From positions 1 through 14,257 of the forward strand of contig JAWAHN010000002.1 of the NCBI GenBank assembly GCA_038889235.1: a DNA stretch of 14,257 bases, in the 5' to 3' direction. The notes beneath the pieces are model-generated. The model ran no database searches, was not told where the DNA came from, and saw only the letters and a list, made by a program, of their open reading frames with translations. Numbering within the stretch: position 1 is the first letter of the stretch; every line of letters begins with the position of its first letter. Shown here in pieces: positions 11,428 through 14,257 of this stretch. The DNA comes from Candidatus Jordarchaeales archaeon (GTDB lineage Archaea > Asgardarchaeota > Jordiarchaeia > Jordiarchaeales > Freyrarchaeaceae). Position numbers and translations under genes: made by a program.

Positions 11428-12144
11428 CTACGGCTCTGCCTCGCTCCAAGCCTTCTCCACTTCCTCCGCTGTAAGCTTTCTTAGCTTCTTGTCCTTCTTC
11501 TCGACCACGGCAACCTCAACCTGGTCCTGGCTTAGGTTGTCGACCGCCGTCCTGAGTGCTTCTATAGCTAGCTTCACCGACTCCGCGACCGTTATGTCCC
11601 TCCTGTACCTCTTCTCCAAGACCTTCATTGCTTTATCCTCGTTCTCCCCTATAACTGCCGCCATGTAGCCTATGGCTGCCCCACTGGTGTCTATGACAAT
11701 CACCTCGGGCTCGCCGTCGTCGGCTACTCCGCCTATTATCAAGGCGCAGCCGAAGGGCCTCACCCCACCGAACTGCGTGTACTGCTGCATCGTGAGCGAC
11801 AGCCGCCTGGCTACGAATGAGGGCTTAGCCCCTTCACCGTATATCATCCTGTACCTCTGCGCCACGCGTCTCGCTAGGTCTGTTAGTACACGCGAGTCGG
11901 ACATGTAGCCTGCGCCAACGATCCCCATGTGCTCATCCAACATCAAGACCTTCTCGTAGTCGTCGAGCAGCTTCTCGTGCTTCCTTTTGACCCCCGCTAG
12001 GACCACGCCGTCCGCAGCCCTTATCCCGACGGCTGGAGCCCCCCTCCTCACAGCGCTCTTAGAATACTCCACCTGGAATATCCTCCCGTCGGGGGAAAAC
12101 ATTGCAATCGTCTTATCGTACTCGGAGATCTCAAGATACTCCAC
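11428..12144 (-). CDS. psmA: 20S proteasome alpha subunit (divergent), 238 aa
   Basis: YD...FSPDGRIFQVEY N-terminal signature, QQYTQFGGVRPFGCALIIGG, non-catalytic alpha-type Ntn pattern. Confidence 0.93.
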   Translation of the reverse strand: MEYLEISEYDKTIAMFSPDGRIFQVEYSKSAVRRGAPAVGIRAADGVVLAGVKRKHEKLLDDYEKVLMLDEHMGIVGAGYMSDSRVLTDLARRVAQRYRMIYGEGAKPSFVARRLSLTMQQYTQFGGVRPFGCALIIGGVADDGEPEVIVIDTSGAAIGYMAAVIGENEDKAMKVLEKRYRRDITVAESVKLAIEALRTAVDNLSQDQVEVAVVEKKDKKLRKLTAEEVEKAWSEAEP

Positions 12145-12292
12145 TTTACATCCCCCATTTCAGCCTCATCTAAGCCGGCGGCCTTTAAAAAGATGCCTCT
12201 ACTACGACCACATCAATACTAGTGTAACACTAAAATATTTTTTACGTGGGGTTCTCTGCTTCAATTAGTTTTCCCGTTTCCTGGGTGGTTTC

Positions 12293-13774
12293 TTGAGGTT
12301 GCTCGAGGAACACCTTTGCCCCCTCTGCAGGGAAAGAGAGGCCAGCTACTATTGTGAGTCATGTTTCCTAATGTTCTGTTCCTCTTGTTCGAAGAAGAAG
12401 CTCGTCCAGTACGCTGTCTGCGAGAGGTGCGGTGAAGTCCACTTGTTAGATGGAAGGTCCAGCCGTGCAGATTCCTGCTTCATCTGTGGACACGACCGAA
12501 TGAGGCTGGGGGTCAGAAAGCTGTCAGTCTGCCCCCGCTGCCTCTCCGAGAGCGTGTCCGACTTAAACAAGAAGAAAGAGGAGCACGCGGCTAAGCTAAG
12601 AGAGGTCGCCCGCGCCCTCCTTTCCGCCTCGTCCGCAATGCTCAACGTGGTGAACTCCACCTCCAAGGCCAAGTCCCGATTGCTAGCCCTCAGGAGAAGC
12701 GGCTTCCTCCACGACCCAAACCTGGAAGGCGAAGTCCTCGGGCTATACGAATCCATCTCAGCGCTCAAGCTCAAGGCCGTCTCGAAGGCTGAAGCGATAA
12801 CCGGTAGCCTTGTCTCCAGGGTCGCCTCCCTGCTCAAAGAGTGGTCCCCTCTGAGAATCAGGGAGATAGAGGCCTGCTTTGGGCAGCTGGAAGGAGCCCT
12901 AAAAGAGTACAAGCGGCTCGTCGAAGAAGAGTGCAAGGCTCTTGAGGAAAGGCTGAAGCAGCTATCCACCTCCCTAGACCACTTGGAGTTCCACAGGAGG
13001 CTCTTCGACGAGTTCAAGTGGCTCCTCGACATCGGGGAAAAAGAGAAGCCCGTCTGCGCCATCCCCCGGGTCAAGTACACTGGAAGCTCGTACCTGTCGT
13101 CGAACAAAGGGGAAGGCATACTCTTCCTAACGACGGAAAGGCTCATCTTCCTTAAGAAAGATGGGCTCCTGAGGAAGAGCTACAAGAAGCACTTCTCAAT
13201 TTTCATAGACGAAGTTGAGGAGGTTAAGGTAAGACGGAGGCTGCGCCGCTCGTTCACCGTGAAAACGCCGAAGGGAACGGTGTCCTTTAAAGCCCCACCC
13301 TACATCTTGGAAAACGTTGAAGCCTACTTCGCGCTCGCCAAAAACTTCGACGAAAACTCCCAGTTAAACCGCTCGCTGACGCTCAGGCTCGAAGGCATCG
13401 CGGTTGGGCTGAGCGACTTCAGGAAGGCGGTAGCCTCCCTCATGGAGGCGGCGCTCAAAGCCGACGAAGAGGGCAAAAGGAGCCAGGACGCCAGTGCACA
13501 ACCCTCCCAGCCGCCGCCTCCACCACAGCGCAGGCCCAGCCCTCCTCCCCCGCCACCCGCAGTGGACCAGGTCTCCCTCCTGGAGCTCGAGAAGAAGAGG
13601 TTCGCCGTTGAGCAGAACCTTAGGAGGCTTAAAGAGCTTTGGGAGAGGGGGGAGATACCCCTAGAGGACTACTTAAAGTTCTCTAGGAGGCTCGAAGGCG
13701 ACCTATACGAGCTCAACGTGAAAATTGAGAGCCTTAAAGGTGCAGGCCGCGGCCAGCAACCTCAGTGGTCCTAA
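12293..13774 (+). CDS. Multidomain protein: B-box/FYVE-like 12-Cys zinc region, helical bundle, PH/GLUE-like domain, polyproline linker, steadiness-box-like C-terminus; 493 aa
   Basis: Long ORF with host-like codon use, TTG start after GGGTGG. Six CxxC pairs (aa 9-83), heptad-rich helices (aa 90-240), GILFLTTERLIF beta motif (aa 275-286), Pro runs (aa about 403-424), C-terminal LKELWERGEIPLEDYLKFSRRL. The CDS is confident; domain names are by-eye inference. Confidence 0.85.
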   Translation: MRLLEEHLCPLCREREASYYCESCFLMFCSSCSKKKLVQYAVCERCGEVHLLDGRSSRADSCFICGHDRMRLGVRKLSVCPRCLSESVSDLNKKKEEHAAKLREVARALLSASSAMLNVVNSTSKAKSRLLALRRSGFLHDPNLEGEVLGLYESISALKLKAVSKAEAITGSLVSRVASLLKEWSPLRIREIEACFGQLEGALKEYKRLVEEECKALEERLKQLSTSLDHLEFHRRLFDEFKWLLDIGEKEKPVCAIPRVKYTGSSYLSSNKGEGILFLTTERLIFLKKDGLLRKSYKKHFSIFIDEVEEVKVRRRLRRSFTVKTPKGTVSFKAPPYILENVEAYFALAKNFDENSQLNRSLTLRLEGIAVGLSDFRKAVASLMEAALKADEEGKRSQDASAQPSQPPPPPQRRPSPPPPPPAVDQVSLLELEKKRFAVEQNLRRLKELWERGEIPLEDYLKFSRRLEGDLYELNVKIESLKGAGRGQQPQWS

Positions 13775-13887: not shown

Positions 13888-14257
13888 TTACTCCTTCTCC
13901 TCAGCCTTCTTTTCCTTCTTTACCCCTTCGAGCTCCTTCTTGGCTTCTTCGAGCTCCTCCAATAGCTGCTGTTTCTCTATGATGGGCGGTTCGGATGGAA
14001 CCTCCGGCTCCGCCACCCCTTCCATCGCTATCTCTGCCTCCAGCTTGTTGAGCTCAGCGGTCACGTCGACGTCCTCTATCCCGAAGCCTATGGGGGACGA
14101 GAGTAGCTCGCCGCTCCTGTCTATCTCCCTCATCATCTGCTCGTGCTGAACTGTCATCTCCATTATGTCGTCCGAGCTTGCAAGCTTCATGGCGCTCTCC
14201 ATGAGCCGGCCAGCTGCCTCCACGCTCTCCTTAACCTGCACTATGTCGTGGGCCTGC
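13888..14257 (-). CDS. ESCRT-III protein, Snf7/Vps20/32/60 class (5' part outside the window)
   Basis: Frame stays open to the window edge (..QAHDIVQVKESVE..). LLSSPIGFGIEDVDVTAELNKLEAE resembles the CHMP4/Snf7 PVGFG...ELxxLE segment; EPEVPSEP resembles a MIM2 motif. Confidence 0.82.
   Translation of the reverse strand, partial: QAHDIVQVKESVEAAGRLMESAMKLASSDDIMEMTVQHEQMMREIDRSGELLSSPIGFGIEDVDVTAELNKLEAEIAMEGVAEPEVPSEPPIIEKQQLLEELEEAKKELEGVKKEKKAEEKE

Follow-up and report, generated by a model that had tools for sequence, protein, structure and literature searches.

The closest described relative of the protein considered here is the Asgard family Znr_CC_PH_SB (also written Znr_PH_CC_SB; asCOG cog.011556), an architecture described computationally by Makarova et al. 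2024 in mBio (PMC10936438). [quoted passage not shown] Asgard genomes were reported by Hatano et al. 2022 to lack Vps37 and Vps36 (PMC9192718). Here we analysed a window of 14,257 nucleotides (nt) that forms the start of contig JAWAHN010000002.1 (C2) in the 2.14-Mb, 95% complete genome of a Candidatus Jordarchaeales archaeon (GCA_038889235.1). Its gene at 12293-13774 (+ strand) encodes the Jordarchaeia orthologue of this Asgard-specific family. An initial annotation of the window had listed CxxC pairs, a long helix, a beta-rich stretch accompanied by basic patches, a run of prolines and an amphipathic C-terminus, all of which are present in the translation. Its domain reading was largely right. 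Its claim of novelty was wrong, as the same architecture and functional inference had already been published as Znr_CC_PH_SB, cog.011556 (PMC10936438).

The frame at 12293-13774 is open over 493 codons, from a TTG start to a TAA stop, and five orthologues with 54-85% identity share the start residue encoded by the TTG. It is a conserved gene and no chance open reading frame (ORF), because an exhaustive search of 1.84 billion proteins aligned 88 cluster representatives with it over their full length, among them Lokiarchaeota/Promethearchaeota proteins of 649-700 residues (aa), and because the family profile matched 389 of 400 genomes, Asgard only, at E <= 1e-5. Roughly 334 of these 389 genomes gave strong, full-length-type matches, while about 55, clustered in a few families, gave hairpin-sized matches only. 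All homologues with a named source are from Asgard archaea, the closest from Jordarchaeales/Freyarchaeota. Membership of cog.011556 can be traced to a published example. A 650-aa member from Lokiarchaeum GC14_75 is tabulated between L35Ae and MetE (PMC10936438), and our protein matches (phmmer, E 6e-32) a 649-aa protein in genome G187 whose gene is flanked by L35Ae (97 aa) on one side and by a MetE-like gene (340 aa) on the other, in agreement with the published sizes and order.

The protein carries the three zinc ribbons, the helical region followed by a PH domain, the steadiness box and the homology to Lokiarchaeota members that characterize cog.011556. It therefore has the module order of the published family in common, is like it restricted so far to Asgard archaea, and invites the same inferred ESCRT-I-like role with membrane contact through the PH domain. 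The present copy comes from Jordarchaeia/Freyarchaeota, a group not named in the main text of PMC10936438, and it is 493 aa long against about 650-700 aa for Loki-type members, because its linker is a polyproline tract of about 25 aa where theirs spans about 200 aa.

On its own, the protein gives only sub-threshold Pfam matches, so the domain tests were run at the level of the family. An AlphaFold2 model built on an alignment of 38 sequences reached a mean predicted local distance difference test score (pLDDT) of 90.7 and a predicted template modelling score (pTM) of 0.72. Five segments can be told apart in it. A zinc module rich in Cys is followed by three long helices and a PH fold, and a disordered linker rich in Pro then leads to a helical hairpin at the C-terminus. 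When the whole model was compared by Foldseek with the PDB and AFDB, it retrieved DH-PH RhoGEFs and dynamin at template modelling (TM) scores of 0.2-0.3 and root-mean-square deviations of about 20 Å or more. We rejected a DH domain on this basis, as such matches reflect long helices lying beside a PH domain and are no evidence of homology.

The C-terminal hairpin (aa 424-486; 13562-13750, + strand), with helices at 424-451 and 457-486, is predicted by the model and the profiles to be a Vps23-type steadiness box. A profile of 36 such hairpins retrieved the yeast Vps23 core (2f66) first from the PDB (E 3.6e-7), followed by TSG101 (4.7e-5) and Vps37B (0.02). When the hairpins were scanned singly in Pfam, 24 of 36 matched Vps23_core, 7 matched CdvA and 4 matched SHOCT, which agrees with the initial annotation in pointing to a steadiness box and not to a generic SHOCT. 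Within the genome, the hairpin shares 38% identity with the box of UEV-Vps23 (E 3e-10), and hhalign assigned it probabilities of 98.4% against that box and 85.9% against the N-terminal hairpin of Vps28. Vps23_core (PF09454) scored below its gathering cut-off on this protein alone (15.5 vs 26.8 bits). Taken together, the profile and pairwise comparisons mark the hairpin as homologous to the steadiness boxes of Vps23/Vps28. Co-folding of the box with the N-terminal part of Vps28 and the box of UEV-Vps23 returned a score of 0.01 in a run without controls, and counts neither way. Two further hairpins of this kind were seen in the genome: a free-standing 112-aa ORF (C2:290994-291329, +; E 3e-6) and the C-terminus of a 407-aa ORF (C1:1027091-1028311, -; E 0.013), about 5 kb from the UEV-Vps23/Vps28/Vps22 operon.

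The likeness to Vps23/TSG101 thus lies in a homologous C-terminal hairpin with a Pro-rich segment ahead of it. Unlike Vps23/TSG101, our protein lacks both a UEV domain and a stalk helix immediately preceding the box, and carries N-terminal zinc and PH modules instead. Vps37 likewise has a steadiness-box hairpin, which in our protein could form a third headpiece element, whereas the match of the family profile to Vps37B is weak and the remaining architecture is unrelated.

A further line of evidence is gene order. A convergent ESCRT-III (Snf7-family) gene, of which the window holds the 3' part (13888-14257, - strand), ends 113 nt downstream of 13774, as the initial annotation had observed. The fragment matches Snf7 at E 1e-4, and an intact Jordarchaeales Snf7 of 211 aa shares 83-92% identity with it. 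We then considered about 20 kb around the family gene in 30 genomes, drawn from 17 families of GTDB, where ORFs were searched with the ESCRT proteins of this genome; the genomes are related, so the tallies are counts and not statistics. An ESCRT-III gene was found no more than 9 kb away in 25 of the 30 Asgard genomes, spread over 13 of the 17 families. In 15 genomes from 8 families it directly adjoins the family gene, tail-to-tail in all 15, with one pair overlapping by 4 nt. The pair of family gene and ESCRT-III adjoins Vps4-Vps25-Vps22 in several families, and in one family a complete ESCRT-I/II/III set is found on the same 9.5-kb contig. Homologues elsewhere are therefore linked to ESCRT genes, as the initial annotation expected. 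We found neither a SHOCT-like C-terminus, nor a missing PH fold (below), nor a lack of ESCRT linkage, the three outcomes that it had named as speaking against its reading.

This arrangement also brings in an alternative modelled on crenarchaeal CdvA, in which the protein would serve as an anchor at the membrane and recruit ESCRT-III directly, without any need for Vps23/Vps28, with the hairpin serving self-assembly or ESCRT-III binding. We judge this unlikely overall and nonetheless a serious rival, because the conserved neighbour is ESCRT-III rather than Vps23/Vps28. That neighbour is convergent throughout the 8 families; in this genome, the Vps23/Vps28 operon is found on a different contig, and both Jordarchaeia ESCRT-III genes are located here, apart from Vps4-Vps25. 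CdvA is itself a membrane-proximal adaptor encoded beside ESCRT-III. Its coiled coil weakly matches the hairpin (E 0.005 for this protein, and the 7 of 36 members mentioned above), and similarity between steadiness box and CdvA has been noted before (PMC10936438). Yet the hairpin is far closer to Vps23_core, both in the number of members (24 vs 7) and in the hhalign comparison with UEV-Vps23. The PRC barrel of CdvA was not detected by Pfam, its place being taken by PH and zinc modules, the protein has no known E3B-type peptide, and no ESCRT-III-binding peptide was noticed, no search having been aimed at one. Moreover, convergent genes are not co-transcribed, and their adjacency alone says little about direct contact.

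The PH-superfold domain (aa 246-355; 13028-13357, + strand) is of the bPH/GRAM/GLUE type and comprises seven strands (253-333) and a C-terminal helix (336-350), with basic loops at about aa 288-299 and 313-319. Modelled separately, aa 246-400 gave a pLDDT of 86.8. Foldseek with this model returned PH-superfold structures only, namely CARMIL, BBS5, Dbs, Bcr and EAP45 GLUE at E values near 1e-4. A VIA search placed the PH-GRAM domain of MTMR2 at the top (Z 13.4) and EAP45 GLUE at Z 10.8, and all 50 listed rows belonged to the PH superfold (PH, PTB, GRAM or FERM-type). The PH call, as a prediction from these models, is solid, and the fold proposed for aa 245-350 in the initial annotation is upheld.

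Its GLUE label was too specific. Among 38 members, the PH region matched bPH_3 in 22, Vps36_ESCRT-II in 10 and GRAM in 9, and GLUE is one among several equally good PH labels. Our protein and Vps36/EAP45 GLUE both have a PH fold with a core of the 'G-x-L-F-L-T-x-x-R-L-I-F' type, and yeast Vps36 also carries zinc fingers on the same polypeptide. By sequence, this protein's PH region is matched best by Vps36 GLUE in both Pfam and the PDB, with scores below threshold, and the best PDB match of the family profile for this region is the yeast Vps36 GLUE domain at a weak E of 0.029. In our protein, however, the zinc module is N-terminal and not inserted into the PH domain, the winged-helix domains are absent (no Pfam match to EAP30), and more of the family members match bPH_3.

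The zinc module occupies aa 1-90 (12293-12562, + strand) and forms beta hairpins in the model. Its six CxxC pairs fall within the first 83 residues (Cys 9/12, 21/24, 29/32, 43/46, 62/65 and 80/83), and the 12 cysteines are invariant or nearly so among 35 divergent family members. This pattern suggests three Zn sites, and the module would be expected to bind metal. Judged by sequence, the first unit appears B-box-like and the remainder zinc-ribbon-like: zf-B_box is matched by 23 of 35 family modules, double zinc ribbon (DZR) by 21 and FYVE by 5. These counts tend to favour the B-box reading of the initial annotation. Cys-rich composition inflates such scores, which applies to the zf-B_box (PF00643) values of 21.3 bits for this protein (cut-off 24.1) and 1.1e-6 for the best of the members matching at E <= 0.01, and equally to the E of 1.4e-5 between the family profile and the TRIM2 B-box. 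The FYVE reading was not supported, as the basic R(R/K)HHCR motif is absent from the sequence and the FYVE profile does not match this protein at E <= 0.01. An ANCHR-like B-box model (PF22586) matches 17 of the 35 modules, in the part that corresponds to aa 5-35 here, which may reflect shared Cys spacing alone. ANCHR/ZFYVE19 is an ESCRT-associated abscission-checkpoint protein.

Between the zinc module and the PH domain lies a helical region (aa 91-245; 12563-13027, + strand), whose helices at 91-135, 143-182 and 186-240 are modelled at pLDDT 93-98. A helical extension follows the PH domain in the model (aa 356-399; 13358-13489, + strand) and leads into the disordered Pro-rich linker (aa ~400-423; 13490-13561, + strand), where pLDDT falls below 50 at 411-419. 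Across the family, this linker varies in composition and in length (about 40 to 295 aa). The polyproline tract of our protein has two matches to P[ST]xP, and it could bind a UEV domain in this lineage. A conserved P[ST]xP for UEV binding was ruled out as a feature of the family, since only 9 of 38 linkers carry one; the analogy with TSG101 drawn in the initial annotation is consequently lineage-specific, and we treat the tract as a flexible linker.

In the ESM-Atlas, bacterial clusters, mostly of Chloroflexota (295 aa and 572 aa), match aa 93-352 (12569-13348) at TM 0.64-0.67, and the 572-aa protein bears GRAM/Vps36_ESCRT-II Pfam matches. The same search yielded small bacterial proteins of the types 'bPH_3+SHOCT' and 'Zn_ribbon+bPH_3'. 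From these structural models, it is possible that the helical-bundle-plus-PH core has a prokaryotic relative outside Asgard archaea.

The resemblance of these bacterial proteins to the core would also fit a reading in which the protein is a dimeric or oligomeric membrane scaffold, or a ubiquitin-system protein of B-box/RING-like kind, with a generic SHOCT or coiled-coil hairpin for oligomerization and a link to ESCRT that amounts to gene order. Structural look-alikes named 'B box-type' and 'RING-type domain-containing protein' in UniProt, and the SHOCT matches in 4 of 36 hairpins, point the same way. We regard this as very unlikely, given that the hairpin profile finds Vps23 and TSG101 specifically and that ESCRT linkage is kept in 13 of the 17 sampled families. 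The named-source homologues and all 400 genomes matched against are Asgard, in a search set that held Asgard genomes only, and E2-binding RING features were not noticed, no test having been aimed at them.

The putative partners of the protein are encoded in the same genome. UEV-Vps23 (C1:~1033k), Vps28 and Vps22 form an operon on contig C1, and Vps4 followed by Vps25 as well as ubiquitin (C2:~385.5k) are also present. The two ESCRT-III genes beside the 12293-13774 gene are the only ones in the genome. No UEV/UQ_con domain was matched by Pfam in our protein. The initial annotation had envisaged one chain uniting modules that are spread over ESCRT-0/I/II; since UEV-Vps23, Vps28, Vps22 and Vps25 have separate genes, the protein adds to the ESCRT-I/II set and is no single-chain replacement for it.

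We think it probable that this Znr_CC_PH_SB orthologue joins the ESCRT-I headpiece through its steadiness box and so supplies it with a zinc module and with a PH domain that binds membranes. The PH domain, with its basic loops, would anchor the protein to the membrane, and the three-helix region may act as a rigid spacer or an oligomerization element. The flexible linker would then display the C-terminal hairpin, which could pack with the hairpins of UEV-Vps23 and Vps28 into an ESCRT-I-like headpiece, in the slot filled by Vps37 in eukaryotes. The zinc module might bind ubiquitin or ubiquitylated cargo, or else the C-terminal domain of Vps28, in the manner of the zinc fingers of yeast Vps36. 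As a whole, the protein would connect the ubiquitin-binding proteins of ESCRT-I/II with the site on the membrane where the ESCRT-III encoded by the neighbouring genes polymerizes.

Several points weigh against this proposal. The Znr_CC_PH_SB family is known from computation alone, and this protein's own scores for Vps36_ESCRT-II (18.7 vs 24.1 bits) and, as given above, for Vps23_core and zf-B_box stay under their Pfam cut-offs. Odinarchaeal ESCRT-I was reported to consist of a Vps23 dimer and Vps28 (2:1), with no third protein (PMC9192718), so that a slot like that of Vps37 may be unavailable. That ESCRT-III rather than Vps23/Vps28 is the conserved neighbour agrees no less well with a direct link to ESCRT-III. 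Finally, several Asgard families have matches of steadiness-box size only, and the protein would thus be dispensable there.

A divergent intergenic region (12145-12292) separates the gene at 12293-13774 from the proteasome alpha gene (11428-12144, - strand) and contains an A/T-rich TATA-like box at about 12231-12243, some 50-60 nt upstream of the ORF, and GGTGG 5-10 nt before the TTG start. On the strength of these two motifs, the region probably holds the promoter and ribosome-binding site of the gene. Genes for CBS, Cdc48, S17e, SUI1 and proteasome alpha lie upstream; downstream and convergent are the ESCRT-III gene, a 947-aa HerA-like ATPase and the second ESCRT-III gene, and gene order around 12293-13774 is identical in two Jordarchaeales assemblies. 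The ATPase, of HerA/DUF87 type and 947-1013 aa long (C2:~14.8-17.7 kb, - strand), is kept between two ESCRT-III genes in both Jordarchaeia-type families sampled, and in these families Vps4-Vps25 lies on another contig. A steadiness box in the ATPase was dismissed, as the family profile of the box found no match to it at E <= 10.

The window ends at a scaffold gap inside the ESCRT-III gene, where N fills C2:14258-14355 and a perfect direct repeat of 128 nt stands on either side; the stretch concerned covers 14129-14257 of the window and C2:14258-14483 beyond it. The adjoining ESCRT-III gene appears split into ORFs of 171 aa and 117 aa owing to an unmerged contig overlap around this run, and a broken or frameshifted gene was ruled out on account of the N-filled gap with its perfect overlap. 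At the other end of the window, a CRISPR array at about 870-3755 (37-nt repeat, period 75-76 nt) explains why A so strongly outnumbers T in the first 4 kb.

A more far-reaching interpretation can be put forward, which we consider improbable at present. Znr_CC_PH_SB could be both the missing third subunit of the ESCRT-I headpiece and the membrane sensor absent from Asgard ESCRT-II; the eukaryotic Vps37 steadiness box and the GLUE-plus-zinc-finger part of Vps36 could descend from it by fission and refusion; and the tail-to-tail pairing could mark a factor that selects the site of ESCRT-III assembly.

In summary, the gene at 12293-13774 adds no new kind of system. It contributes a compact 493-aa Jordarchaeia member, confidently modelled and perhaps handy as a construct for biochemistry. 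The analysis adds a count that makes linkage to ESCRT-III the rule across families, together with family-level tests that part the steadiness box from its SHOCT and CdvA look-alikes. Among prokaryotes, Asgard archaea have the version of the ubiquitin-ESCRT pathway that comes closest to the eukaryotic one, and the reported lack of Vps36 and Vps37 raises the question of how their ESCRT-I/II proteins reach the membrane. Znr_CC_PH_SB, near-universal in the Asgard phylum, is an obvious candidate for bringing them there.

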